Part shown: positions 43,285 through 64,000 of the stretch, in pieces
Numbering within the stretch: position 1 is the stretch's first letter
How the letters are laid out: each line of letters begins with the position of its first letter
IMG/VR virus record: IMGVR_UViG_3300011242_000004
Length of the DNA: 64,000 nucleotides
Strand: one strand, 5' to 3'
From: an uncultured virus (IMG/VR IMGVR_UViG_3300011242_000004)
Lineage: Duplodnaviria > Heunggongvirae > Uroviricota > Caudoviricetes
Position numbers and translations under genes: made by a program
The notes under the pieces: generated by a model
What the model was told of the DNA's origin: nothing
What the model saw: the letters and a program-made list of their open reading frames with translations, nothing else
Database searches by the model: none

Positions 43285-44565
43285 TTAAAAATGGTCTCTT
43301 CCTCTAAAGGAAGAACGTTGCCCTCTACTTCCCCAATCCAATGAATCACGGTTCTTCTTCCGTCCTAGCGTCGTACGCTTCGGCGGCGGAGCCCCCGGCT
43401 CGTCCCATCCTTCTGCCTTCTTCTCTGAGAACGTATTGTTCGCAAAGACTTCTTTTAACGGGTCCACAAATTCTCGTTTAACGGTTGAAAATTGTCTTGC
43501 CACATCTTTAACCTCAAGTGCTTTCGCTAAATCAGGATAAACAGTATTAAAAGCATAGAGTGTCAGCATGAATGCATCGAGTGCATGTTCATCTTCATTT
43601 GAGTAAGTAGGTTCGCCAGTTTTCGGCGCAATCCGTTTGACTTGATATTTTGTCATCTGACGGTTGACGGTATCATCGACGTCTTTTGACGGAATCCGTA
43701 ATTGACCCCGGTCAAGGAATAATGTCGTCATGTTAACCATGAACGCTTTCAGTGGTTTCTTATCAAGGGTTCGACTGATAGGGTCTCGCACAAGCTCTGT
43801 GCTTCCGAATGCGACCGCCCGTACCTTATCTCCAATCGTTTTACGTAAAACCTCTGATTGGTAGTCACCGGCACCTTTATCGACGTATATCGCAAAAGGA
43901 TTGTAAATCTTGTCCAATTGTTGCAGTTTTTTGACGGCATTATCATATGTATACTCACCACGTGCAATTTCGAAACGATTGATGATTTTGAATCGACCAT
44001 ATGGTGCTAACTCACTATCAGTGTCAGCATCTGTCATTCGTCGTTCATCGAATCTGTCCCATTGCGTCACGATGATTTGGGTCGCCGCCCCTGCTTTATC
44101 CCAGTCAACACCAATCGCAATCGGTGCGTCATTTGTCCGCTGGCTAAGGTAACCATAACCATTCGAACTAGCTTCGTCAACGAAGTCTTTATTAAATACC
44201 CCGGCATCCTCTGTACCAAATTCTGCTAGAACCTCGTGCTCATAAGCGGCGTGTGTATACATCGTCCGCATCTCTTGTTCAAGCTCTGGTGACCACTCTG
44301 GGTTGACCATGGTTGGGAAGTGGAATTCTTTCCAGCCACTGGCTGTCATGCGGTCATATTTTCGGGCATCGTAGTGATGTCCGTCTCGTGTTTTCACGGG
44401 TCTTACCTTATCGTCTTGATTGAAGCGCATTTCGACACAGGCTTGATAGAATTTCCCTCGTCGTCCGGTTGGCGTTGACGCCATCATAATACCGATACGT
44501 TTAGGAGCCTCCATCGAGATAGCGAAGATGGCTTCAAAGTCTTTATCGCCAAGATAGTCTACTTC
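43285..44565 (-). CDS. terL: Terminase large subunit, exon 2 (rest of ATPase plus RNase H-like nuclease)
   Basis: Begins EVDYL (completes Walker B LYMD|E); ASTPTG coupling motif; IGVDW and DEHALDA nuclease motifs. Confidence 0.9.
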   Translation of the reverse strand, partial: EVDYLGDKDFEAIFAISMEAPKRIGIMMASTPTGRRGKFYQACVEMRFNQDDKVRPVKTRDGHHYDARKYDRMTASGWKEFHFPTMVNPEWSPELEQEMRTMYTHAAYEHEVLAEFGTEDAGVFNKDFVDEASSNGYGYLSQRTNDAPIAIGVDWDKAGAATQIIVTQWDRFDERRMTDADTDSELAPYGRFKIINRFEIARGEYTYDNAVKKLQQLDKIYNPFAIYVDKGAGDYQSEVLRKTIGDKVRAVAFGSTELVRDPISRTLDKKPLKAFMVNMTTLFLDRGQLRIPSKDVDDTVNRQMTKYQVKRIAPKTGEPTYSNEDEHALDAFMLTLYAFNTVYPDLAKALEVKDVARQFSTVKREFVDPLKEVFANNTFSEKKAEGWDEPGAPPPKRTTLGRKKNRDSLDWGSRGQRSSFRGRDHF

Positions 44566-45169
44566 CAATTCCTTACGTAAGGCGCGACCCTTACTCCCGG
44601 CTTTCGCACGGGGATGAGACTATATCATCAACTCTTGATAAGCGGTACGCATCATTTCCATCGTTCGGTAGACGATGAAATCTTCTTTCGGTACATACTG
44701 CAAATCCGTGTAGAGTTTTAAACTATCGACGCTTTCTTGCGTTACATTCAAGACCACTGGAATTAATTCATGTGCTTTCCATTGATAGAACGTAATATCG
44801 TCGAACACTCTACCTTCTCCGATGAAATAATACTGACCGCCTCGTTTATAGTTCCCAAACGATTCGCGCATCTTCATTTCCATCATCACAAGAGTTGTCG
44901 GGTGCTTCGAGAGCGCTTGCTCTCTACTCTCTTTCGAGATAGTCGTTGCGGACCATCCTGTAACCGCTACAGGACATTCCTCAGGATTGCCGTGCAATGG
45001 GGCGTTGCGCACCATGTCGACGATGGATTGACCGACGGTTTCTGATAAATGTTGAAGATTTTGCCGATATGCTTTGTCTGATTGATGCATGTGTATTCCT
45101 CCATTGTGTAGGTTTCCCTGATTCCACCCGATTTGCTTATGCTGTCACCAACATAAGGGACAAAAGTTT
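44566..45169 (-). ncRNA. Group I self-splicing intron (604 nt, IA-like) in terL
   Basis: 5' splice after GGAU with P1 GGAU/GUCC (U-G pair). P2 has a GUGA loop; P3 UCGGGUG/CACCCGA; P4 UCAGG/CCUGA; P7 GACUA/UAGUC with S element GAUAUAGUC; P7.1/P7.2 present; terminal G at 44566. Splicing restores the frame. Confidence 0.92.
44620..45090 (-). CDS. Intron-encoded ORF (156 aa), no recognisable homing endonuclease motif
   Basis: GGAGG RBS at 45098-45102, ATG 45090, stop TAG inside the S element. Confidence 0.5.
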   Translation of the reverse strand: MHQSDKAYRQNLQHLSETVGQSIVDMVRNAPLHGNPEECPVAVTGWSATTISKESREQALSKHPTTLVMMEMKMRESFGNYKRGGQYYFIGEGRVFDDITFYQWKAHELIPVVLNVTQESVDSLKLYTDLQYVPKEDFIVYRTMEMMRTAYQELMI

Positions 45170-46876
45170 ATCCATGTAGAGCCAACTGGCTTTTTGACCA
45201 CGTAAGCTTCCCCCTTCTGCCCCGGAACGTGTCCCGGCAGTAAAGAGCTTGATACGTGATTTATTATGAAAGACGATTTCATAAGGTGACCGGCGAACCG
45301 CTTGTACTGATGCTTTTAACGCATCATTGTTATCGATGAAGTTCGTCAACTGGTCAAAGATTTCTCGTGCCTGAGAATCGTAAGGTGTCGCAACCAAACA
45401 CGTTGCACCCTTCGCAATCTCTGTTCCACCGTTACAGGTATAGGCAACCCATAGCATGTGTGCTGTCATTGTCCATGTATTGTGGACGAGAATGTCTTCT
45501 ACGACTAGGTTGTGTGTTTCCGGTACGAAGACATCGTATGTTGGGCGCATTCCCACCGATTCGATGGCAACGACTTCTTCCCATAACACATCACTGTATA
45601 CAAGGTCATACAAGAAAGCCGATTGCATGTTCTCTGCATAGACACGTGCTTTCCCTTTACTCAGTCCATGGTTCATACGGAGACGTTCTGTCTTTGAACC
45701 AGAGACTTGCGTCTTTGTCATTTTCTTTTCGCGTCGTTCTTTTTCAATATGTTTCCAAACGTCTTTTGGTAACGTTTCATCCATCGACTGCATTTCTAGT
45801 GCTCGACGGTATGTATTGCTGTAATCTCGTGCTGTTTTATTGCCTTGGCGCACACAATCGATGAATCGAATGACATGTTCCCGGTAATACGTCATGACAT
45901 GGAAATATTCTGTGTCATTGACATGTTTTTTTAAGATATTCGACTTAATCCCTAAACGAAGCAGTAAATGCTTCAGATTTCGGGCGAATTCATGGTGCGG
46001 TGTCCCGTATCCAATTTCAACGATACGTTTCGCATAATCCCATCCTCCGACATCGTATAAAGCGGCGATGAAGCATTCGAGGACTGTCTTATCGTATTGG
46101 TAGACTTCTTCTGGTAAAATCCCTAATCGAGCTTCTTCTGCAATGAATTTGAACTCATTCAGGTGATGTGGAATCCATAGTTCATAACTTTGTTTCCGTT
46201 TCTCGATTTTAGCGAAGACGCCGTCATGATTCTCGAATACTTTCTGCATCCGGTCTTGGACGCTTTCAAAACGAGACTCTAAACAGAGCGAATCTTTGAA
46301 CACTCGTCCACCGGCTACTAAATATCCAAGCATCGCCGCACGTTCTGGAGCTTTAATTCCTTTAACGTAATCGTTCTCTGTAATCGTTCCTTGATGGTCA
46401 AGTTTGCGCGGAACCGCAATCGAGTCTCCGACTTCAAGGAGGTCAACTTCGACCCATCCGTCAATCGTTAAGACGGGGTGGTTTCCTGTGAGCAATACTT
46501 CTGCTCCATGTTTCGTCTTCACACGGAAGACTTCTTTGACACCATTGTCTTCAATGAAGAAGGCATTCGAATTCTCTAATTGATAAGCTTCATTCAACGT
46601 CAGTAAGTTGACACTGTTTGATTCTTTTTGCTGTTGGTATAATTCTTCGATGGCAGTATAAGACCCTGTGATGGGGTCGAGGATACGCTGGTCACCAGCA
46701 ATACATTTACCGATACGACGTCCACATCGCAATACCTTACGATTGTGTGGATGACGTAGAATTTCCTCTTGATACCACCGTGGTTTGTCACCCCCTAAAT
46801 GCTTAGCGGCCCATTTTACTGGGTCACGCATAATCTGGATAACTTCCTTATCGTGTTCTTTTCCCACGATTTTCAC
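45170..46876 (-). CDS. terL: Terminase large subunit, exon 1 (contains an intein)
   Basis: WYQ adenine-binding motif, Walker A CGRRIGK|T, LRGQ..WLYMD Walker B up to the splice site. Confidence 0.9.
45479..46705 (-). mobile_element. Intein (409 aa) with LAGLIDADG-type endonuclease domain
   Basis: Starts CIAGD (Cys58); TGNHP block B; ends YDVFVPETHNLVVEDILVHN followed by Thr; LAGLIDADG-like blocks MLGYLVAGG and FIAALYDVGG; LLLRLGI block H. Confidence 0.93.
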
Positions 46877-53130: not shown

Positions 53131-53292
53131 ATCCCTGTATAGGTAGGCCCTCATATGGAGGGGTGCCTATATGGGGTGCTGTATATGGGTGCCTCTATAT
53201 AGGGGTGCCTATAGCAAGGCCTCTATATAAGGCCCTCTATATAAGGGGGTCTATATAGGGGGTACTATATAAGGCCCCTCTATAGAAGGGGC
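53131..53292. repeat. Array of imperfect palindromic CC(T)CTATATAGGGG-type units
   Basis: About 10 degenerate units, e.g. gcctctatatagggg, ggcctctatataaggcc, ggtctatataggggg, cccctctatagaagggg. Confidence 0.8.
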
Positions 53293-54051: not shown

Positions 54052-56847
54052 ATGACAAACGCTAAAAACAACAACAACGGAAAACAAAACAAAAAGGGGA
54101 TGAAACCTATGAAAGCATTAACAATCACTGAACTCGTCAAACAACGTAAAACTATCGTCAAGCACCAAGGTCCAAAGAAACCATCGTTCAACTTGTCAGC
54201 AACAAAATCAGTTTTCGGATTCACACACCCGATGACTGGCGCATTAACAATCTTGAATGACAAAACGCTTCAGCACTTGTTTGTCAGCGATGACATGAAC
54301 AATACAAAGTTTAATCCTGCTGTCCGTTTGTTCATGGTGACGGAAGGTTCTACAAAAGTAGAAGATTTCATGGTCAATGAGAAAACATTGGTTCAGCGTA
54401 ACTCTGAATCGATGCTTGTACGGGATGCCGCTAAAGTCACAACAGAATTCGACATTATCAAGAAAGACCCGCTCAACCGTAAACAGATGTTGACGGAGAA
54501 GCTTGAGGCCTTTGACAATACACGTCAGCTCAACCTTAAGGTTGCAGATGTCGTTGTCAAACTCAAGAAGTTATTTGAATCAAAAGAAGTCAAAGCACGT
54601 TTTGGTAATATCGATGCAAAAGACATCAATCATTTCATCAAAGAAGTACTCTTGAATGGTGTCGTGAATCTTGACTTCGTGAATGGCGATTACGATGTCA
54701 AAGTATTCACATTGAATTCAGCGGCACCATCGCAAACTCGTAAGGGTGAAGCGGCTTTCTGGCAGTATGCGGAACAACGTGGTCTTGCCAACCTCAAGGA
54801 TTTAATCTTTGATGACGCAAAACGTTCAATCGCTGTTTACGGTCGTTTTGTTTCAACCTACCGTATGAACGAATACGGTAAACTCAAATTGAAGCGCGGT
54901 AAACGCATCTTCAAGATGGACAAAGAGCCAAAACGTTTGGACATGCCCGCATCAGGTTCGCGGGATTCACAGGCTTTCAAGTTCCTGTTCGGTAAAATGG
55001 TCATCGTCGACCGTTTCCTTTACACGGATGACGAGAAAGAAGCTGGTACTAATATCAAAGTCGTTAAAGAAGCGATTGTATTAGAATCTTCTTCTTTGAT
55101 GATGGGTGGCGTCAAACGTCGGGTTCTTATCATTCAAGACCCGATTCGTGAAGTTGAAGCAACGGCGAAAGTCGTTGAGAAGTACAACACGGAGTCAGGT
55201 AAGCCTGAAATCGTGGAAGGGCTTTACAAGTTCCCTAAGAACTTGGTCGATGGTGGTATCTTGGTTTCTGAGGAAGTGACAGAGTTTATGGTCGCTGAAG
55301 GAAACTTGAAGCACAAAGGGCAGTCATTCCAAGGTCGTGGTGTAGCGGGTGTTAAACCATTCGCTTATGGCACACCAATGCTTAAAGAGATGACTGGTGT
55401 AGACATGGTCTTCATGTCAGGTGCATTAAAACTCGATGTTATCCCATCATTGCTTGATGGTCGCTTCGAGTTTGCAGTCGTTCAAGGGTCACGTCTTGAG
55501 TTTGCTGAAGACATGGCACCGGTAGCAACACAGGCTTTACTTGCGGCTGGTACACCGCAAGAGAACCTTGAATTGCTTCACATGATTGCGGCAGGTCGTA
55601 TCGATGCTTCTATGTACTCAGCGTCAAAAGCTCTCAAGATTCTTGGCATCACAGAGAACTTTGACGAGGAGACAATGAAAGTTGTCGAACAAGATGAAGA
55701 GTTCGTCGAAGAGTTAGATGGCGAAACAGGTGTGAAAGCGATTCTTCGTAAAGCACCTCACGCTATCAAAGATGGTCTTCTCAAAGACCGTCTTATCAAC
55801 ATCATGGCAAAAGCCCTTGAGAAAATCAAGTTGGGCAATGTCCTTGTTGATGACGCTAAAATGCGTCACATGGGCTTTGACATCTTTATGGTTGTCAAAG
55901 CTATCGAATCATTATTTGTTCAACGCAATAAAGGCGTTGAAGTGCCACAGATGGAATGGGTGAACTCTATCCCAGCTGGTGGTGCAGTTGTTGTTGACGC
56001 TTACGGTCGTCTTCGTGCAGGATACTTCCTTGCGATTCGTTACCCAGCATTGAAGAACGAAGAAGTACGCAAAGTACTAGCGGCTGTTGAGTTTGGTTCA
56101 GAAGAAGCACGTCTTTACTACGAACGTGCGGCACAAATGGGCTTCTTCCAAGGCCTTGTGTTGTTTAACTCTGTTGACATGACGACAGAGGCAATGAGTG
56201 GTGCCGATTTTGATGGCGACACTTGCTTGGTTATCTTCAATGCTTTAATGGTTGAACCGTTTGTAAACAAAACACCACTTCTCGATTTCTTTATCACTGA
56301 GACTGGTGCGCTCGAAGGTGGATGCCCATGGTCTGCACCGGAGGAAGCTGTTGATTTTAAAGCTCACATCACAGCACCTGAGGGTCTTGAATTCACGCAA
56401 GTGATGGAAAACAACTCTCGTACGTGGGCACTTGAGTTCGACGAAGAAGACGTCAAAAACCGTCCAGCAGACGTTTACTATGTCTTCAACCGTGCAGGAG
56501 CATTGCACATCGCTGAGACAGCGAAGATTTCTTCAATCGGAACATGGACAAACCGTCTTATGAACGTTGAAGATATCCAACTCGAAATCATCGGTGAAAT
56601 CGGACTTGCACGTCAGCTTCAAGACCGTGCGAAATTCGTTTCTCTTTCGAACGAGTTGGCGTTCTACGATGATTTAGCAATGTGGTTAACATGTATCGTT
56701 CGTTGGGCAATCGACGAAGCGAAACATGGTGGAGCGTTCAACGGACCACTTGCTCATATCGTCAACATCTTCGAAGATGCAACATCTCCAACGAAGATGC
56801 GTGAAGACCTTGAGAAACATGTCTTCAAAATGGGTCGTATGTTCTAA
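54052..56847 (+). CDS. YonO-like / cellular-RdRP-like two-barrel RNA polymerase
   Basis: LVDGG, FQGRGVAGVK, IRYP, MSGADFDGD (DFDGD at 56206-56220) and AIDEAKHG follow the motif order of the QDE-1/YonO family. Confidence 0.88.
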   Translation: MTNAKNNNNGKQNKKGMKPMKALTITELVKQRKTIVKHQGPKKPSFNLSATKSVFGFTHPMTGALTILNDKTLQHLFVSDDMNNTKFNPAVRLFMVTEGSTKVEDFMVNEKTLVQRNSESMLVRDAAKVTTEFDIIKKDPLNRKQMLTEKLEAFDNTRQLNLKVADVVVKLKKLFESKEVKARFGNIDAKDINHFIKEVLLNGVVNLDFVNGDYDVKVFTLNSAAPSQTRKGEAAFWQYAEQRGLANLKDLIFDDAKRSIAVYGRFVSTYRMNEYGKLKLKRGKRIFKMDKEPKRLDMPASGSRDSQAFKFLFGKMVIVDRFLYTDDEKEAGTNIKVVKEAIVLESSSLMMGGVKRRVLIIQDPIREVEATAKVVEKYNTESGKPEIVEGLYKFPKNLVDGGILVSEEVTEFMVAEGNLKHKGQSFQGRGVAGVKPFAYGTPMLKEMTGVDMVFMSGALKLDVIPSLLDGRFEFAVVQGSRLEFAEDMAPVATQALLAAGTPQENLELLHMIAAGRIDASMYSASKALKILGITENFDEETMKVVEQDEEFVEELDGETGVKAILRKAPHAIKDGLLKDRLINIMAKALEKIKLGNVLVDDAKMRHMGFDIFMVVKAIESLFVQRNKGVEVPQMEWVNSIPAGGAVVVDAYGRLRAGYFLAIRYPALKNEEVRKVLAAVEFGSEEARLYYERAAQMGFFQGLVLFNSVDMTTEAMSGADFDGDTCLVIFNALMVEPFVNKTPLLDFFITETGALEGGCPWSAPEEAVDFKAHITAPEGLEFTQVMENNSRTWALEFDEEDVKNRPADVYYVFNRAGALHIAETAKISSIGTWTNRLMNVEDIQLEIIGEIGLARQLQDRAKFVSLSNELAFYDDLAMWLTCIVRWAIDEAKHGGAFNGPLAHIVNIFEDATSPTKMREDLEKHVFKMGRMF

Positions 56848-56872
56848 GAATTAAATCGTAACAGCGAATGTT

Positions 56873-56897
56873 GAGGGGTGAGATGCCCTCTTTTTTT
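56873..56897 (+). terminator. Intrinsic terminator
   Basis: GAGGG...CCCTC hairpin followed by T7. Confidence 0.65.
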
Positions 56898-56972
56898 ATG
56901 GATTGTTTTACTGCCAATAGGACGGAAAATACCGTATGAGGCCCTGCACATGCAGGAGAATAGGGGAAAATC

Positions 56973-58943
56973 ATGTCTAACACTACTAACACTGCTATCT
57001 ACAACGTCGCTACAGAAGCTGAAATCGCAAATTCTGTCGGCTTGCCAGAAATGTCAATGGAAGAAGCACGCTCATTGGCAATCAACGTCTTAAACAGCTC
57101 AATGGTGTTGGTTTCATCACAGGAAGCACGTAAGTTTGTCATGGCAGATAAAGAATCTGCACTTAAGCAAGTAGTTCTTCTCACGCAACAAAAGCTTCGT
57201 CTCAAATTCGGACCAAAGATGGACTTCTTCCACGGCGAAGTGGAAAAGGATATTGAATGGTTCCGTGCAACAGCTGACGAGTTGATTGCAAAAGGTGAGT
57301 TGCGTCTCATTCAAGATGTTGATTCTGACATCTTCATGTGGACTGAGAAAGCCCACAAGTTCACGTTCCAAATCTTCAAAGGGAAACGTTTCCGTACGTC
57401 TCAGTTGATTGTCAAACTTCAGAATGAAGTCACTTTCCGTGATGTTCACAATGAAGCACTTGCTCGTGCAGAAGCACATGAGACACAGTACAAAAGCAAT
57501 AAAATGCCGTTGCAACGTCCGGCTTATATTGCGGCTCAAAAAGGAGAAGAAGGTGTTCGTGTTGCACATCGTCATTCTTCAGTGCAATTGGCAACAGACT
57601 TCGCTGGTTTCATTCTTGAAGAGTTGAAAGTCAAGAAAGCAAGTCTTAAACGTTCAATGAACATGTTGAATGATTTCATTGCTTTGAAAGACCGTTTTGA
57701 AATCTCTGACGATGAGCGTGCACGCTTGTCAGCAGAAGCTAGCACGTTGCTTTCTACTGCTAAAGTAGGGCTTGATGAAATTCAGTTGGAACGTGACAGC
57801 TATAATGAACGTGCACAAATCTTCATGGGTATGAAAACTGTCCATGATACGCATGACTTCAAAGTATTTGTGGCCAACGAGAAAGCGGCTGGTCGCAAAG
57901 TCAACATGGACAAAGCAAAACAACACTTTGCTCTTCCAGTTGGGAAAGTGCTTTGGAAACAAGCGACAGAGGGGATGCGCAACTCTGCTCGTCGTAAAGC
58001 GATGACAACGGCTGAGCTTGACCGTCTTGCTGAGATGAATCTATCTTATACGCAAGAAATGAAAGCACAGACGCTTCAAACTGCTCAGAAACTTGAGAAA
58101 GAGTTGAAGATGTCAAATGCAACGATGAAATTGGCTATCATTGCCTATATCGATGCATACAACGCTGATAAAGAAGGTTTGGGCGGTCTCGCTTCAATGT
58201 GGGATACGTTCGAAGAAGGATTGTTGATGGCATTGGACGCAATGGCTACTCAAGGCCCTCTCGTTGAGTACAAACCATCTTCAGCAGAATTGTCGTTCTT
58301 CTTTGAACCTGCCATGAACGATATTACGACTATTGAGAAAGCGCATGCTGAATTAACAGCAATGAAAGTTCTCAACAAAGACGTTAATATCGTTACTGTT
58401 GATGGCGAAGTCGGCCTTCAACTTGATGCTGGTTTCTTCCCACTTGAAAAGCAAGAAAAGAAACTCAAGTGGTTGCCAGCAGGTCGTGACTATGTAGCAA
58501 AAGTAACACGCTACAAAAACACGGTCAAAACAGGGATTGCGATGGGGCTCTCAGATATCCGTGCCATCAATGTGCCTGAAGAAGAAGTGCAAGAAGCAGT
58601 CGTCGACCAAGTTGTCGATGGTTACACTGCTGATGCGGATTACGATTGGGCGCAAGAGCCAGCGCCTGATTATATCGATGGTCTTTTCTTCGATAACTAC
58701 GAAGAAGAAACTGTTGAAGCACCACAGCCTGTTGTTCTTGCTCCAACGGAAATCATCGTTGCGACGTTAGAACGTAATACTGTTGAAGCTGTTCTTTCTC
58801 AACAGTATGAAATGGCAGTATCACCGCTTGGTACGCAAGTCTTCATGCTTCATAACGGACAGCGTATCTTGTCGTTCACGACGGATGTTCAATTGTCTTC
58901 GCTTGACGGTATGCGTCACGATGGCACGAACTTCGTCATCTGA
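56973..58943 (+). CDS. Hypothetical 656-aa protein, possibly the C-terminal part/second subunit of the RNA polymerase
   Basis: RPAYI...HSSV and AYIDAY...SMWDTFEEGL resemble RdRP/YonO C-terminal motifs missing from the upstream ORF. Confidence 0.5.
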   Translation: MSNTTNTAIYNVATEAEIANSVGLPEMSMEEARSLAINVLNSSMVLVSSQEARKFVMADKESALKQVVLLTQQKLRLKFGPKMDFFHGEVEKDIEWFRATADELIAKGELRLIQDVDSDIFMWTEKAHKFTFQIFKGKRFRTSQLIVKLQNEVTFRDVHNEALARAEAHETQYKSNKMPLQRPAYIAAQKGEEGVRVAHRHSSVQLATDFAGFILEELKVKKASLKRSMNMLNDFIALKDRFEISDDERARLSAEASTLLSTAKVGLDEIQLERDSYNERAQIFMGMKTVHDTHDFKVFVANEKAAGRKVNMDKAKQHFALPVGKVLWKQATEGMRNSARRKAMTTAELDRLAEMNLSYTQEMKAQTLQTAQKLEKELKMSNATMKLAIIAYIDAYNADKEGLGGLASMWDTFEEGLLMALDAMATQGPLVEYKPSSAELSFFFEPAMNDITTIEKAHAELTAMKVLNKDVNIVTVDGEVGLQLDAGFFPLEKQEKKLKWLPAGRDYVAKVTRYKNTVKTGIAMGLSDIRAINVPEEEVQEAVVDQVVDGYTADADYDWAQEPAPDYIDGLFFDNYEEETVEAPQPVVLAPTEIIVATLERNTVEAVLSQQYEMAVSPLGTQVFMLHNGQRILSFTTDVQLSSLDGMRHDGTNFVI

Positions 58944-58949
58944 TTTAGG

Positions 58950-58980
58950 AAGGCCCTCTTCGGAGGGTCTTTTGTTTTGT
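58950..58980 (+). terminator. Intrinsic terminator
   Basis: AAGGCCCTC-TTCG-GAGGGTCTT then TTGTTTT. Confidence 0.8.
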
Positions 58981-59021
58981 TGTCTGTCACTCAATCCACA
59001 TACAAAAAGGAGATTATTAAA

Positions 59022-60167
59022 ATGAAAATCCAAAACAAAGTAGCTCGTTATATCAACAACGTCAATGCAACTAACACTTCAGTCCAAATCAACAAAATGG
59101 TGAAGGCCATTGCATTGGCAGAGCGTGAGTTGGAACAAGCACGTCAAATGTTTGCCGATTTCACGGCACCAACTCCACCGGCTCCAAAGAAATCCATTGT
59201 TCATTCTTCTAAAGGAACAATGACAACACAGTCTGAAGTTCATGCGCTTCTCATGGACACAGATAAAACAGTTGTAGCCGTTAAAGAAGCAGTCAAAGAA
59301 GAACCTGTGTACAAAGGTTTGGATTTGACACCGGCTCCAGCTACTCCTGAACCAACGGAGTACAAAGGCTTAGATTTATCCGCTCCAACTCCTGAGCCTG
59401 AGTATAAAGGACTTGATTTAACACCGGCTCCTAAACCAGCACCATTGGCGAAGGAAGTCCGGGAGAACATGGCAAAACCAGCACCAAAACCTGTACAACA
59501 GCCAGTCAATTCGAAGGCTGGTTTCTTGTCAGGCCCTGCTGAGTCTTCCAACGTGTTGAACAGTGCTATGCCAAGTCATAAGCACGACACGCTTAAATAC
59601 GTCGAGAAGCTGAAGAAGTTTATCTTCTCTGGCATCATGAAACTTGCAGAAGCAGGGATTCGTGAGATTCGTGTCGCTGAGTTCTATGGCGTCGAATTGT
59701 TGACAGCGCTCGTCTGGCCTAGCGTGCTTGCGAAGTGTCCAGACATGGAGCTCATTCTCTATACAAATGAGAATAAGAGCTTCAAGCAATACAAGACGGA
59801 AGAGTACGAGGCGACGTTCAAGATTCATTCGCCATACCGTCTGCAACAAGACTTGCGTCGACTGGCTAATAAAGTCGTTAAAGTCGAAGGCAATGCCTTT
59901 GCAGTACGCCGTGCTGTAGCAAAAGATACAGCCGGTTATGTGCGTATCTCTCCATTTGGTTTGGAGGATATCACGACATCGTTATTCAGCAACAAGACGC
60001 TACGGGTGAACATTTGCCCATGGACGCTTGCTGTTGAAGTCGGTGGTGATTTACCTGCCCTCTCTCTTGCGGGAGATGGTGGGGATTACCGTCCACGCCA
60101 AATGGTAGCGGACGAAAAGTTGTTAGCGGCGGACACGTCAGACTATAAGGGCCTGACTCTTTCATAA
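59022..60167 (+). CDS. Protein with Pro-rich YKGLDL repeats and a C-terminal YpsA/SLOG-like domain
   Basis: KLAEAGIREIR...YGVELLTA...KCPDMELILY resembles YpsA/DUF1273; AAGGAG RBS before ATG 59022. Confidence 0.55.
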   Translation: MKIQNKVARYINNVNATNTSVQINKMVKAIALAERELEQARQMFADFTAPTPPAPKKSIVHSSKGTMTTQSEVHALLMDTDKTVVAVKEAVKEEPVYKGLDLTPAPATPEPTEYKGLDLSAPTPEPEYKGLDLTPAPKPAPLAKEVRENMAKPAPKPVQQPVNSKAGFLSGPAESSNVLNSAMPSHKHDTLKYVEKLKKFIFSGIMKLAEAGIREIRVAEFYGVELLTALVWPSVLAKCPDMELILYTNENKSFKQYKTEEYEATFKIHSPYRLQQDLRRLANKVVKVEGNAFAVRRAVAKDTAGYVRISPFGLEDITTSLFSNKTLRVNICPWTLAVEVGGDLPALSLAGDGGDYRPRQMVADEKLLAADTSDYKGLTLS

Positions 60168-60281
60168 GAGCCGGGCTTTTGCTTAACGTTGGCTATCAGG
60201 CCTTCGGCTAGGGGTTTTAACCCCTTACAACCGGAGGCTTCCAGCCTTCTCTTGCGGTATCACTACTAGAAAGGAGTGACG

Positions 60282-60518
60282 ATGATGTCACGAGAATTTA
60301 TTGTTTCTTTGTTACGCTTAGTATTACCGTACCCATTACACTGGTACGAAAGTAAGTCCTTGCACCAATTGAACGGAATCTACACGGAATACCGGGGAGC
60401 CATTTCCCGGAAACGTGTACAGTTGGCATTTGAAGCCGATGACCGCCGTTTAAAAGAAAAACTGAAGAAAACACCATTCGTTCCTCCGAAAGAGGACAAT
60501 GGGTTGCCCTTCTTTTAG
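60282..60518 (+). CDS. Hypothetical protein
   Basis: AAGGAG RBS; acidic-aromatic C-terminus EDNGLPFF. Confidence 0.6.
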   Translation: MMSREFIVSLLRLVLPYPLHWYESKSLHQLNGIYTEYRGAISRKRVQLAFEADDRRLKEKLKKTPFVPPKEDNGLPFF

Positions 60519-60565
60519 GGCAAGTTCAAAAACAAAGGGCGGAGGACTCCGTCCTTCTTTTGTTG

Positions 60566-60931
60566 ATTCAATGAGGGGAACTTGATTCCAACCAACAGCT
60601 CAACTGGTCCTTCGGGATAGAGCCTTCACACCTCATTGAATTGCACCAACATGCAGGTGAAGGTTCTCGCTTTCCCCCTACTGTCCAGTGGGGGGTTGCG
60701 TCATGAGAGCGGTGAACACTTCCGTCTTTGGACATATCCAGCGCTACCCTGATGGGTTCTGGAGAAAAGACGGTCGTATTACTTCCTACTTGGTAGGAGC
60801 ACGACATCAGGTCTCCTTTTTGTCCTACCGGATAGGGGATTCGTATTCTATGCGTCGCACAGGGGTGTGCAAAGTCATAGATAGTAGGTGTTATGTAGCG
60901 CGGAGGCTTACCCAACCTCCGGCACATAGCA
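60566..60931 (+). ncRNA. Candidate structured ncRNA (unclassified)
   Basis: Nearly continuous helices, including two interleaved 11-bp stems; no ORF with an RBS; G-U pairs and a UUCG loop favour the + strand. Confidence 0.6.
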
Positions 60932-61004
60932 AATACATAGTTAGAAGGCGGAGGCCTCCGGGCCTTCTTCTCTTGATTCTATTACATGCAAAGGGGAGAT
61001 TGAC

Positions 61005-61283
61005 ATGAAAGAAATGAAACTCACGCAATTGGACGAAAGTAAAGCACGTAAGCTTTTACCTGAAGAAATAGCGGAACTCGATAACGCTGTTGAGAATCAT
61101 CAAACGATATCGGAACTCAAAGTCATGCATTCGAATGCTGGGTATTATCTAGGGCATACGATTGACCAAGAAATTGATGGTCAAGTATTTGAAATGCCTT
61201 GGGACCGCGTGACCGACTACTATAAAACGAAAGAAAAAGCGGAGCAAGCGCTTCGGTTCGAACAACTGCATCAACAAGACTAA
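61005..61283 (+). CDS. Conserved-looking phage hypothetical protein
   Basis: VMHSNAGYYLG...PWDRVTDYY..KEKAEQAL; GGGGAG RBS. Confidence 0.7.
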   Translation: MKEMKLTQLDESKARKLLPEEIAELDNAVENHQTISELKVMHSNAGYYLGHTIDQEIDGQVFEMPWDRVTDYYKTKEKAEQALRFEQLHQQD

Positions 61284-61345
61284 AAGCGGAGGGCTCCGGC
61301 CCTTCTTTCTTTGATTACAACTTTATATGAAAAGGAGCGATTCAC

Positions 61346-61675
61346 ATGTATGAACAAATTGAACGGGAAGTCGAAATGGACAAATTCTTCCGTCGGGGGA
61401 AATACTCAACGAACGTTAACCCGGCGACTGGTGAATTCATCGAGCAACCAGTACTTTCAGCGGATAAGCCTCACCGCTGTCATGTCATCAAACGGCTATG
61501 CCCGAAAATGACGATGAACACGGATATGGCTACCATCACGCAAGATGTGAAGTTGGCTTATCAAGGAAAACAGTTTTGGCATACGATTGAACTTGAGACA
61601 TGTAAACGGGAAGATGTTGCTCGTGTGTATCAACAACATGCTCAACGTTGGCGCCTAGAGGAGGAAAGCAAATGA
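61346..61675 (+). CDS. Hypothetical protein
   Basis: AAGGAG RBS. Confidence 0.65.
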   Translation: MYEQIEREVEMDKFFRRGKYSTNVNPATGEFIEQPVLSADKPHRCHVIKRLCPKMTMNTDMATITQDVKLAYQGKQFWHTIELETCKREDVARVYQQHAQRWRLEEESK

Positions 61676-61851
61676 ACGACCAATTGCTTTTCTTCATGAT
61701 GGCATCCATGTATCTCGTCTTTTGTGCGTACGTTGTTGGTATCGCGTATATCGCGCGGTACCTTCTGCTTCGTAATCATTTCAAGTTAGCCTTCTCTAGT
61801 TTCTTCGTCGGTGTCGGCGGTCTTATCTTCGTTTTAAATACATTATTCTAA
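61672..61851 (+). CDS. Small membrane protein (2 TM)
   Basis: Two hydrophobic helices; GAGGAGG RBS; ATGA overlap. Confidence 0.6.
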   Translation: MNDQLLFFMMASMYLVFCAYVVGIAYIARYLLLRNHFKLAFSSFFVGVGGLIFVLNTLF

Positions 61852-61862
61852 GGGAGCGATTC

Positions 61863-62051
61863 ATGATGAAAAAGGTTGGTAAAGTATTACTTAAAGGTGC
61901 GATTCTCTATACGTTTGCGATGTATGTCGCCGCCATTAACATCGTCGCTGAAAAACGGAAGACCGACGCTCAGATTGATAAGCTCACGAAACAATACGAA
62001 GCAAGCCAAGCTGGTTTTAAAAAGACACTTAAACAATTGGGGGCTATCTAA
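61863..62051 (+). CDS. Small protein with N-terminal hydrophobic helix
   Basis: GGGAG RBS. Confidence 0.6.
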   Translation: MMKKVGKVLLKGAILYTFAMYVAAINIVAEKRKTDAQIDKLTKQYEASQAGFKKTLKQLGAI

Positions 62052-62326
62052 TGAAATACTTTGATATGCATTATAGTATTATTGTAGACCGTCCGCTCGT
62101 TGCTGTTTTGCTTAAAAATGGTCAGCGCGGGGTATTCGTTAATAACAATATCTCGTGCATTAACGACTTCGATTTCGAGAAGCGTGTCCTCAGCCGTCGT
62201 TCGATTGCCGGGAACGTCGATACACGCTACAAGTCTCTTGATGAGGCCGTCGCGGAATATAATGAATCATGTATTGAAAGCAAACGTATCATTTCATTCG
62301 ATATCCTAGAGGAGGCAACAGCATGA
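62051..62326 (+). CDS. Hypothetical protein
   Basis: TAATG coupling to the upstream gene. Confidence 0.6.
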   Translation: MKYFDMHYSIIVDRPLVAVLLKNGQRGVFVNNNISCINDFDFEKRVLSRRSIAGNVDTRYKSLDEAVAEYNESCIESKRIISFDILEEATA

Positions 62327-62610
62327 ACACTATCATCCAACCTACTACTACGATTAAACCTCTCCGTCATGAAGATACGACGGAGACACGCAACTATATC
62401 AACATCTATAAAGATGGTGTCCTCTATGAGGGCATCACCGCGATTCGTCAAACGTCTTTTGATAATAATGGACATCGTCTTTATGAAGTCTCAGTTGACC
62501 CGGAGAAAAAGGTCTTTTACAAACTTCCGTATAGCTTCGATATTCCCTATGAGTTCGAAGGCAAGGACTTAAACATGATGATTACGCACGCACGGTTTAA
62601 ACAACACTGA
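62323..62610 (+). CDS. Hypothetical protein
   Basis: GAGGAGG RBS; ATGA overlap. Confidence 0.6.
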   Translation: MNTIIQPTTTIKPLRHEDTTETRNYINIYKDGVLYEGITAIRQTSFDNNGHRLYEVSVDPEKKVFYKLPYSFDIPYEFEGKDLNMMITHARFKQH

Positions 62611-62634
62611 GGGCCTTCGGGCTCTCTTTTTTTT
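62609..62634 (+). terminator. Intrinsic terminator
   Basis: GAGGGCC-TTCG-GGCTCTC then T8. Confidence 0.8.
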
Positions 62635-62685
62635 ATGGACACACATCTCCAGTGGGAACACACATTCAGAAGGGAGACATATCCA

Positions 62686-62886
62686 ATGTCTACAGTCAGT
62701 CTTATTGCCAACCTCATTATTTTTCTCTCCACCCTCTACACCTTATTCTTTTATATTCGTGCCCGTCGGGTTGTATCAACACATGGAGAAACAGATGCGC
62801 GCGTTCGCACTCTCCGTGAAACCAAGAACTACTTCATGATTTGTATCTCTTATTCTGTATTAGTCATTGTGCTTCAGTTCTTTTAA
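62686..62886 (+). CDS. Small membrane protein
   Basis: Two hydrophobic segments; AGGGAG RBS. Confidence 0.55.
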   Translation: MSTVSLIANLIIFLSTLYTLFFYIRARRVVSTHGETDARVRTLRETKNYFMICISYSVLVIVLQFF

Positions 62887-62970
62887 AAGATAAAAGGCGG
62901 AGGCCTCCGGCCCTCTTTTCATGATTCTCAGCGTCTGTAGCCATTCACCTTATAGAAAGGAAGATTATCC

Positions 62971-63276
62971 ATGGAAGAACAAATCTACGCCTATCAGCAC
63001 ATCCTTAGACACACATCCAAGTTCGATGAAATCACTGTCGGGTTAGCCTCTGTCGTCAACGGACTCGTCAATGACCTCATTGCCAAGAATCAGGACTTCA
63101 TTCGTATGAACAGTGAACAGCGGTTGTATTCAGCTATTGCCAAAGCTCGTATCTTAGAAATGCAATTGGCATACACGATTGATTACAGTCATACGCCGTT
63201 GCTTCCAGAGATTCTTCCGCTCGACCCTATCAAGGTCAATGCGCTACAGGAAGAATACGAAGCCCAGTTCCAATAA
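62971..63276 (+). CDS. Hypothetical protein
   Basis: AAAGGA RBS. Confidence 0.6.
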   Translation: MEEQIYAYQHILRHTSKFDEITVGLASVVNGLVNDLIAKNQDFIRMNSEQRLYSAIAKARILEMQLAYTIDYSHTPLLPEILPLDPIKVNALQEEYEAQFQ

Positions 63277-63317
63277 GAGCCTTCCGGCTCTTACATACCT
63301 TAAAGGAGGAGATACTA

Positions 63318-63716
63318 ATGAATGCTTCAAACCGTCTGTTTCATTTAGCACAAGATGCTCTCACCAAACAAAAAGTCAGCGAGAGAGCCTACTCGATTGC
63401 ACAAGACTTCATCAAACAAGCAGAGTGGTATGCAAGTAGAGGAGATGACAGTACCGCCTTTATTTGTGACGAAGAACAGAACTTCAGTGGCTCTCTAACT
63501 GAAATTAAAGAGTTGTTGTCTGAAGTCCGAAAAGTTCTTTCCAACGAAGGATTCAAGACGACTTCCTACATGCACCCTTCTATTATGCAACCGGTCTTGC
63601 GAATACATTGGGCGCAACCGAAAGAAAACAGTACATTCGTTATACATGCGGAAACTAAAGATGGAGTAGAAGCCATCCACCATATGCTTAAGTTTTTACC
63701 TGAACTAATCAACTAA
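63318..63716 (+). CDS. Hypothetical protein (paralog of the next gene)
   Basis: AGGAGGAGATACTAATG start. Confidence 0.65.
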   Translation: MNASNRLFHLAQDALTKQKVSERAYSIAQDFIKQAEWYASRGDDSTAFICDEEQNFSGSLTEIKELLSEVRKVLSNEGFKTTSYMHPSIMQPVLRIHWAQPKENSTFVIHAETKDGVEAIHHMLKFLPELIN

Positions 63717-63732
63717 ACAGGAGGAGATACTA

Positions 63733-64000
63733 ATGAAAAACGCACAGATGATGTACAAACTCGCGCAGGAAGCGAAAGCAGAAGAAAAACGGGCAGAGGT
63801 CATCAACGCCATCACATTCAAAATCGGTGATATCATCCAAAGCCACGCGAAGAAAGGATTCACGGACATCCGCATCTCCACAGACAACATGGGCTTTAAC
63901 CACGACTTCATGTTGAACATGAACAACGTCCACGAACTCATGGCTCATATCAGACAGTTCGGATACGAGGTCCGTCTTCTGTTGATGGCAGACACCAACG
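63733..64000 (+). CDS. Hypothetical protein (partial)
   Basis: Manual translation MKNAQMMYKLAQEAKAEE...; same AGGAGGAGATACTAATG start; not in the ORF track. Confidence 0.65.
   Translation, partial: MKNAQMMYKLAQEAKAEEKRAEVINAITFKIGDIIQSHAKKGFTDIRISTDNMGFNHDFMLNMNNVHELMAHIRQFGYEVRLLLMADTN

Follow-up and report, generated by a model that had tools for sequence, protein, structure and literature searches.

A putative stand-alone structured RNA gene in the cassette array of an uncultured jumbo phage of the 0305phi8-36 lineage

Small accessory genes of T4-type phages are organized into promoter-early stem-loop (PeSL) cassettes, each bounded by a repeated stem-loop and an adjacent motif, such that related phages differ by whole cassettes, as laid out by Arbiol et al. 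2010 (PMC2839356). A different kind of phage and prophage element is represented by the large ornate RNAs (ROOL and GOLLD; also OLE), which are long and protein-free, with many helices and pseudoknots and no known job, and are encoded as a unit of their own in phage DNA; these RNAs are the subject of a cryo-EM study (PMC12286853). Here we describe a locus that resembles both, a stretch of about 370 nt on the plus strand of an uncultured member of the Caudoviricetes (IMG/VR record IMGVR_UViG_3300011242_000004), of which 64,000 nt were analyzed (hereafter, the window). An initial annotation of the window had flagged this stretch as a novel structured phage RNA with a possible double pseudoknot. 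We conclude, with a probability of roughly 0.6, that it encodes a stand-alone, highly structured non-coding RNA (ncRNA) that acts in trans; that the stretch specifies a real, conserved structured RNA on the plus strand is, taken by itself, highly probable.

60566..60934, plus strand: structured RNA, 369 nt, 107 bp in 15 helices with 3 pseudoknots; ends putative; homolog at positions 1556-1898 of metagenome contig L019

The RNA is a cassette of its own in an array of small, same-strand, hairpin-bounded genes, starting after one boundary hairpin and its TTGATTC motif and ending at the next hairpin, and close relatives either have it or lack it as one complete cassette. As in mobile PeSL cassettes, the stem-loop and motif are found at both ends and the content varies among close relatives. 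Unlike the PeSL arrangement, one cassette here holds an RNA gene instead of an open reading frame (ORF), the motif beside the hairpin is not a recognizable sigma-70 promoter (promoter and terminator roles in this array are putative), and the phage lineage is unrelated to the T4-type phages. ROOL and GOLLD are about 580 and 800 nt long, respectively, whereas the RNA in the window, which is like them in kind, is shorter at ~370 nt; in addition, it differs from these RNAs and from OLE in that neither copy matches any Rfam 15 family and no tRNA genes lie alongside. By its size class (300-400 nt) and several long-range pseudoknots, the RNA is also comparable to transfer-messenger RNA (tmRNA), RNase P RNA and the group I introns, but no such model gives a match inside it at E up to 10, its two ends are not paired to one another, and it interrupts no gene.

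The evidence centers on the second copy of the RNA, which lies between homologs of both flanking genes on L019, the one contig that was matched when metagenomes were scanned with the 77-aa protein encoded upstream of the RNA. The blastn alignment of the two copies is confined to the last 34 nt (88% identity), so that the RNA has diverged far beyond the 77-aa gene, which is 82% identical over 234 nt, yet L019 rebuilds the same 15 helices. Minimum free energy folds computed separately for the two copies show the same order of hairpins. The components of the fold, all on the plus strand, are the following.

60566-60576 with 60631-60641, plus strand: P1, 11 nt, 100% complementary (inverted-repeat scan); forms pseudoknot 1 together with P3
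60607..60618, plus strand: P2, hairpin with UUCG loop, predicted independently in both copies; 2 of 4 pairs changed on both sides
60619-60629 with 60657-60667, plus strand: P3, 11 nt, 91% complementary with one G-T; encloses the 3′ arm of P1 and P4
60642-60655, plus strand: P4, hairpin; 3 of 4 pairs changed on both sides
60668..60700, plus strand: P5, hairpin; 4 pairs changed on both sides
60683-60686 with 60730-60733, plus strand: pseudoknot 2, formed by the P5 loop; GUCC/GGAC in the window, UGUGU/ACACA in L019, its position immediately 3′ of the P6 5′ arm being shared by both copies
60722-60729 with 60766-60773, plus strand: P6; 2 pairs changed on both sides
60737-60741 with 60759-60763, plus strand: P6a; 2 pairs changed on both sides; the apical loop has CCUGAUG (60748-60754)
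60748-60754 with 60805-60811, plus strand: pseudoknot 3, P6a loop with a strand directly 5′ of P8; 7 bp in both copies, 100% complementary
60785-60790 with 60883-60888, plus strand: P7, proposed long-range helix that would complete a three-way junction with P8 and P9; 6 bp here, 4 bp at the corresponding site of L019
60812..60839, plus strand: P8/P8a, hairpin with conserved CC-ACCGG-UAGG, preceded by conserved AGGUCUCC; all 9 pairs kept, 4 of them with a one-sided change (model-made alignment)
60847..60881, plus strand: P9/P9a, hairpin; pairs changed on both sides, 4 of 6 in helix 3 and 1 of 5 in helix 4
60889..60931, plus strand: P10, 16-bp hairpin with a conserved 9-nt loop, CUUACCCAA (CUUACUCAC in L019); the part with the most conserved sequence

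P1 and P3 are the two interleaved helices from which the initial annotation had derived a pseudoknot or a switch, and the pseudoknot covaries: L019 keeps 10 of the 11 pairs of P1, with one G-C to C-G swap, and 5 of the 11 pairs of P3 are changed on both sides with none broken. The two loops of pseudoknot 1 are occupied by the hairpins P2 and P4. The proposed contact between TGTCCA (60682-60687) and TGGACA (60729-60734), which corresponds to pseudoknot 2, likewise covaries in L019. Thus, both pseudoknots of the suggested double pseudoknot hold, but the count was too low, given that a third, unlisted one exists; in this pseudoknot 3, 2 pairs are changed on both sides and 1 on one side, and when the loops were shuffled 5000 times, a run of that length came up in 2.6% of cases for the window and 4.3% for L019. 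The other stems that had been listed, namely, the GTCC-TTCG-GGAT hairpin, CCCCCTACT/AGTGGGGGG, CCGTCTTT/AAAGACGG enclosing TCCAG/CTGGA, TCTATG/CATAGA with GCACA/TGTGC, and TGTTATGT/ACATAGCA with CGGAGG/CCTCCG, were all recovered in the window, as was TTCCTAC/GTAGGAG; this last hairpin is not conserved, its 5′ arm being likelier to pair with 60883-60888. The latter pairing is P7, which is the weakest helix of the model; its rival in the window is a local hairpin at 60783-60799 that is absent from L019. Among the 16 pairs of P10 (helix 5), 12 are invariant, 1 is changed on both sides, 2 on one side, and 1 is unpaired in one row. The 5′ and 3′ ends of the RNA do not pair with each other.

When the pairs were matched by hand between the two copies (n = 90), 51 were unchanged, both sides differed in 30 and one side in 7, and 2 were broken; the unmatched pairs comprise 14 found in the window only and 16 in L019 only. 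Canonical pairs make up 107 of 107 in the window and 115 of 116 in L019, compared to 36-51% of positions that pair in the control in which the 3′ partner was slid by 1-3 nt. All three pseudoknots still pair with altered letters in L019. Hence the claim of a structured phage ncRNA is upheld by a diverged second copy that keeps the fold via compensatory changes; a homolog that preserves a frame instead of the pairing had been named as evidence to the contrary, and what L019 keeps is the pairing and no frame. The comparison with shuffled sequences that had been suggested as a check gave the same indication, the plus-strand fold (−134.9 kcal/mol) having a z-score of −3.41 with none of 100 shuffles as good; the z-score of the L019 copy is −4.85. 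The minus strand folds similarly (z = −3.73), so energy alone does not choose the strand. The wobble asymmetry does: among 210 pair cells, 21 are G-U and 0 are A-C, and therefore the folded RNA is the plus strand, which is also the strand of the neighboring genes.

These counts are complemented by covariance models built from the window alone, R1 from the 3′ domain and R2 from the 5′ domain. Across 195 kb of loci, R1 matches L019 at 1778-1898 (61.3 bits, E = 7e-13) and has no other match. In the alignment made by R1, 98.6% of the cells pair and 6 pairs are changed on both sides, as opposed to 35-53% paired with 0-2 both-side changes in the slid controls. Of 500 shuffles, 6 performed equally well. 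RNAalifold applied to a structure-blind MAFFT alignment yields 76 pairs, 21 of these changed on both sides, and recovers P1, P5, P8, P9 and P10.

Two ORFs called mechanically overlap the RNA.

60568-60927, minus strand: mechanical ORF, 119 aa, overlapping the RNA
60688-61008, plus strand: mechanical ORF, 106 aa, overlapping the RNA and crossing the next hairpin into the start of the next gene

Neither of these ORFs has a Pfam or PHROGs match, and neither is kept at the L019 locus, where plus-strand ORFs do not exceed 36 aa and the RNA contains no ORF of 20 aa or more on the minus strand. The initial annotation had likewise noted no ORF led by a ribosome-binding site in the segment. Six-frame comparison with the relatives produced a single match (E = 0.001), which was dismissed, being antisense within a real 329-aa ORF. 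A protein-coding gene was accordingly rejected, with no frame kept between the copies and no similarity to known proteins.

The failure of the initial annotation to place the segment in a known family is also borne out. At the gathering thresholds of Rfam 15, the whole window yields only the group I intron RF00028, elsewhere, a match that doubles as a positive control. With the cut-off relaxed to an E of 10, the search of window positions 60400-61100 gave no row inside 60575-60954; in L019 1400-2150, the rows inside 1556-1898 all score at most 15.4 bits against gathering scores of at least 50. ARAGORN detected 0 tRNA or tmRNA genes in the whole window, and tmRNA was rejected given that its sole Rfam row (10.4 bits, 60460-60553) is upstream of the RNA. 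RNase P RNA, 6S RNA, the signal recognition particle (SRP) RNA and all other Rfam 15 families were rejected as well, none coming near its gathering threshold.

The cassette is delimited by the following features.

60285..60518, plus strand: upstream flanking gene, 77 aa from ATG at 60285 (ORF listed from GTG at 60276), homolog of gp100 of Bacillus phage 0305phi8-36
60535..60562, plus strand: upstream boundary hairpin at the end of the 77-aa gene, with a terminator-like site at 60535-60556 (repeat family D2); a T-rich run and TTGATTC (60563-60569) follow
60943..60975, plus strand: downstream cassette hairpin (60943-60968), with a terminator-like site at 60950-60967 (family D2), T-rich run and TTGATTC
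61005..61283, plus strand: downstream flanking gene, 92 aa, phrog_15544, function unknown

As the initial annotation had observed, the segment sits between two hairpin copies like a gene; family D2 consists of four hairpin copies, two of which flank the RNA. The downstream hairpin with its motif (60943-60975) is probably the 3′ end or terminator of the RNA unit. A near-identical hairpin and motif precede the RNA copy in L019 (1525-1559), where the 77-aa gene is followed, in order, by the boundary hairpin with TTGATTCAAT, ~345 nt without an ORF, a terminator-like hairpin belonging to this stretch, a short hairpin unit, the boundary motif and the homolog of the 92-aa gene. In an IMG/VR relative that spans the region (fragment G001), homologs of the 396-aa and 77-aa proteins are present and are followed by other protein cassettes, the RNA and the 92-aa gene both missing. 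Altogether, the window, G001 and L019 differ in their cassette content between the 77-aa gene and the gene for a protein with the signature ...QIERE..FFRRGKYSTN. With respect to the boundary proper, the stretch of L019 from the RNA to the next boundary (1899-2020) contains two additional terminator-like hairpins along with a small hairpin unit, none of which is present in the window. It can also be observed that the stem of the P10 apex (60899-60923) has the letters of the boundary hairpins, but its loop is the conserved 9 nt; by its sequence, the apex may derive from a boundary hairpin or may be seen by the same factor.

Several considerations weigh against a stand-alone, trans-acting RNA. 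The two known sequences are too few for a statistical covariation test such as R-scape, and part of the pair table comes from our own structure-guided alignment of helices with wholly different letters. R2 misses L019 with the default filters and, with the filters off, scores 17.9 bits (E = 0.0015), no better than an unrelated match in the window (44857-44950); because of this weak score, the 5′ domain rests on synteny, the conserved UUCG hairpin, an AGAG landmark and the hand alignment. Since the apex of P10 shares the stem letters of the boundary hairpin, the conservation of P10 may partly mirror the boundary motif. The sigma-70 promoter scan gave none on the plus strand at the 5′ end of the RNA and none at the boundary motif. 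The TTGATTC boundary motif is itself overlapped by the 5′ arm of P1, and if this motif is a promoter element, that arm might fall upstream of the RNA start. Furthermore, the joint presence of the RNA and the 92-aa gene in two loci and their joint absence from one fit a cis or partner relation as well as they fit independence. Finally, whatever is proposed on the function of the RNA is pure inference.

The alternative that is closest to hand, although we regard it as improbable, is that the RNA is a cis-acting leader of the 92-aa gene, riboswitch-like or protein-sensing, the fold of which decides on read-through of the 60943-60968 hairpin. Such a leader would account for the RNA and the gene occurring together in the window and L019 and both being missing from G001, and in principle the 5′ inner arm of P10 (60898-60907) could work as an anti-terminator, given its 90% complementarity with the downstream hairpin in the 3′ arm of the latter (60954-60963). 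However, the intervening hairpin and motif are the generic unit found between nearly all cassettes and not a dedicated expression platform, and L019 contains ~130 extra nt with two more terminator-like hairpins between the RNA and the gene, the first of which does not share the P10 letters, so that L019 does not conserve the anti-terminator pairing. Neither copy matches any riboswitch or leader family, and the co-occurrence counts amount to just two loci with both elements and one without. Membership among riboswitches or cis leaders was thus rejected on account of the generic boundary unit ahead of the next gene and of an anti-terminator pairing that has no counterpart in L019. We consider somewhat less likely still a catalytic RNA, be it a ribozyme, self-cleaving or processing, with the cassette transcript as its substrate, or a self-splicing intron that is degenerate or unrecognized, even though compact multi-pseudoknot folds are typical of ribozymes and the same phage has a true group I intron (44595-45179, minus strand). 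No ribozyme or intron family, RF00028 included, matches inside either copy at E up to 10, whereas the same library finds the intron in the window at 70.8 bits; the only ribozyme row, Hammerhead_1 (17 bits; L019 1905-1962, minus strand), is outside the RNA and below the gathering score. In the nested double pseudoknot of the hepatitis delta virus (HDV) ribozyme, the strand order is P1-P2-P3-P3′-P1′-P4-P4′-P2′, at odds with the order seen here by inspection (P1, hairpin, P3, P1′, hairpin, P3′), and with no ribozyme row inside the RNA, HDV-like and other small self-cleaving ribozymes were rejected. A group I intron was rejected also because of the location of the RNA between two complete genes with their own stop, start and boundary hairpin; as the RNA interrupts no gene, there are no exons to join.

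It is very unlikely, in our judgment, that there is no functional RNA at all and that the segment is a decayed protein cassette or spacer with chance or leftover boundary hairpins, or else a DNA element such as a replication or packaging site. The numerous both-side changes (30 pairs, versus 2 broken) and the three long-range contacts kept with different letters argue against this possibility, as does the occurrence of 21 G-U and 0 A-C cells, which neither a duplex-DNA element nor neutral decay would give; moreover, no frame or protein similarity remains of a former gene. What such an origin would explain is the plasticity of the cassette array, the resemblance of the P10 apex to a boundary hairpin, the equally good folding of the minus strand by energy, and an identity to L019 much below that of the flanking gene.

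Under the preferred reading of a stand-alone ncRNA gene, the RNA would be transcribed together with the early genes, an analogy drawn from 0305phi8-36, in which small, apparently monocistronic units lie near the genome end (PMC2147016). It would then act in trans as a compact folded RNA, by protein binding or self-assembly rather than by antisense pairing. The fold itself, in which 58% of the bases are paired, three pseudoknots occur and long single strands are few, speaks for the former two modes, and so does the lack of an excess of sites complementary to the conserved P10 loop, of which there are 2 in the window (one being the loop itself) against 1.5 expected, so no target was found. Accessory early cassettes usually serve host takeover or counter-defense, and the placement of the RNA among such cassettes suggests that a role of this kind would be the most plausible one. 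As with the surrounding protein cassettes, recombination at the repeated boundary hairpins would account for gain and loss of the RNA.

A more far-reaching proposal, which we put forward only tentatively and consider doubtful as it stands, is that the RNA defines, as its first member, a new class of phage RNAs that are compact, contain three pseudoknots, possess their own activity and are used in the first minutes of jumbo-phage infection. That activity could be that of a new ribozyme, of an RNA-only multimer like ROOL and GOLLD, or of a decoy disarming a host RNA-binding defense or polymerase factor. For a multimer, the palindromic CCGG of P8a and the 9-nt loop of P10, both conserved, are candidate contact points. 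Large RNAs that fold intricately and have no known job are seldom found, and time and again they have led to new biology, including ribozymes, riboswitches and RNA nanocages; this one, at ~370 nt and with three testable pseudoknots, is short enough for synthesis, cryo-EM or chemical probing, and it is located in the accessory early-gene array of the poorly known 0305phi8-36-like jumbo-phage lineage. The locus further shows that hairpin-bounded shuffling cassettes can hold RNA genes besides small ORFs, and annotation that fills such gaps with spurious ORFs, here of 106 and 119 aa, would overlook them.

So far, the RNA family consists of two sequences, one per phage fragment. Protein scans of IMG/VR with the 396-aa, 656-aa and 92-aa neighbors as anchors returned either nothing or only G001, which is without the RNA, and exact-pattern scans of the same database gave 0 matches both for a 26-nt stretch of P5 and for the conserved 3′ arm of P10. 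The gapped P8 motif occurs at 9 IMG/VR loci, none of which is matched by R1 even with the filters off (best score 3.6 bits). A scan of genome contigs with the P10 pattern found 6 loci versus ~4 expected by chance (a hand estimate), again none matched by R1. In five jumbo phages of Bacillus and Moorella, namely, 0305phi8-36, vB_BauM_KLEB27-3, vB_BceM_WH1, Edson and MTATph1, the models R1, R2 and R3 detected no copy (best 13.1 bits, E = 0.12), and the DNA search produced only matches of at most 26 nt with E of 0.07 or worse. Elsewhere in the window and in the three related IMG/VR fragments G001-G003, R1 and R3 had no match and R2 had chance-level ones only (at most 18 bits). The RNA is apparently undescribed: no description turned up in the literature, although the supplements of a phage-RNA catalog with more than 10,000 candidates (PMC10690425) could hold a relative.

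The stretch 60566-60931 belongs to a run of small plus-strand genes that extends from 53341 onward, and at the end of nearly all these genes there is a G+C-rich hairpin with conserved letters, after which come a T-rich run and a TGATT(C/A) motif (repeat family D2, terminator-like sites, hairpin scan). Over 58950-62920 of the window, and throughout L019 and the G001 locus (L012), the gene-end hairpins are alike in letters as well as in shape, being of the GCGG[A/G]GG..CCTCCGG type. The same combination of hairpin, T-rich run and TGATT(C/A) recurs in these two related phages, and the cassettes between conserved flanks differ among all three. The array is a PeSL-like shuffling system or, possibly, a phage-specific promoter/terminator signal. 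The G+C content is 0.50-0.52 over the RNA stretch, compared to 0.39-0.47 in the downstream genes.

The 77-aa protein is 43.5% identical to ORF100 of 0305phi8-36 (E = 2e-6, tblastn) and, at the amino acid level, 74% identical to its homolog in G001 and 86% identical to that in L019. Ahead of this gene, the window contains a 108-nt leader with two small hairpins (60168-60275), which is kept in G001 (L012 6428-6553) and in L019 (~1160-1279) and looks like a conserved structured 5′ untranslated region. The 92-aa protein, which is encoded beside the RNA in the window and L019 and is missing along with it in G001, had no tblastn match in the phage records; in the ESM Atlas, it falls in unnamed viral clusters only, and a weak Pfam row (E = 0.023), below the cut-off, was disregarded.

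By sequence, the phage that carries the RNA is an uncultured jumbo phage from the lineage of Bacillus phage 0305phi8-36. A minus-strand block holds the genes for a capsid protein, a portal and a protein with an intein; portal identity is 39-46% with vB_BauM_KLEB27-3, vB_BceM_WH1, Edson and 0305phi8-36, 32.5% with MTATph1, and 71-84% with the closer relatives G001-G003. At the DNA level, there is no match to any of 50,697 phage records, either by distant-mode blastn (60500-61000) or by megablast (56000-64000). For 0305phi8-36, Hardies et al. 2007 (PMC2147016) report small, apparently monocistronic units near one genome end and mention non-coding spaces and no RNA gene; gp100 is located near the same end. 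In 0305phi8-36, a gp99-type (RNA-dependent RNA polymerase-like) RNA polymerase is encoded beside gp100; it is absent from the window and from the fragments of the relatives.

Other parts of the window present features of their own. The group I intron RF00028 (44595-45179, minus strand, 70.8 bits) holds a 156-aa ORF and adjoins a 579-aa ORF with an intein and a LAGLIDADG domain, so that two kinds of selfish elements lie in or beside one gene (43285-46876). Three successive giant ORFs of 2539, 2521 and 2061 aa, none with a Pfam match, occupy 3663-25091 on the minus strand. The gap between the divergent minus- and plus-strand blocks (53151-53269) contains at least six tandem 14-nt repeats of the CTATATAGGGGTGC type, which could be iterons, an origin or a regulatory array. 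In the right terminal repeat of 0305phi8-36, between ORF102R and ORF101R (L035 1718-2440), there are 723 nt without an annotated ORF that fold with a z-score of −3.7 (20 shuffles); this stretch has no Rfam match, no DNA match in four related phages and no link to the RNA described here; it may specify a further large RNA of the lineage, one without sequence relation to the present RNA.

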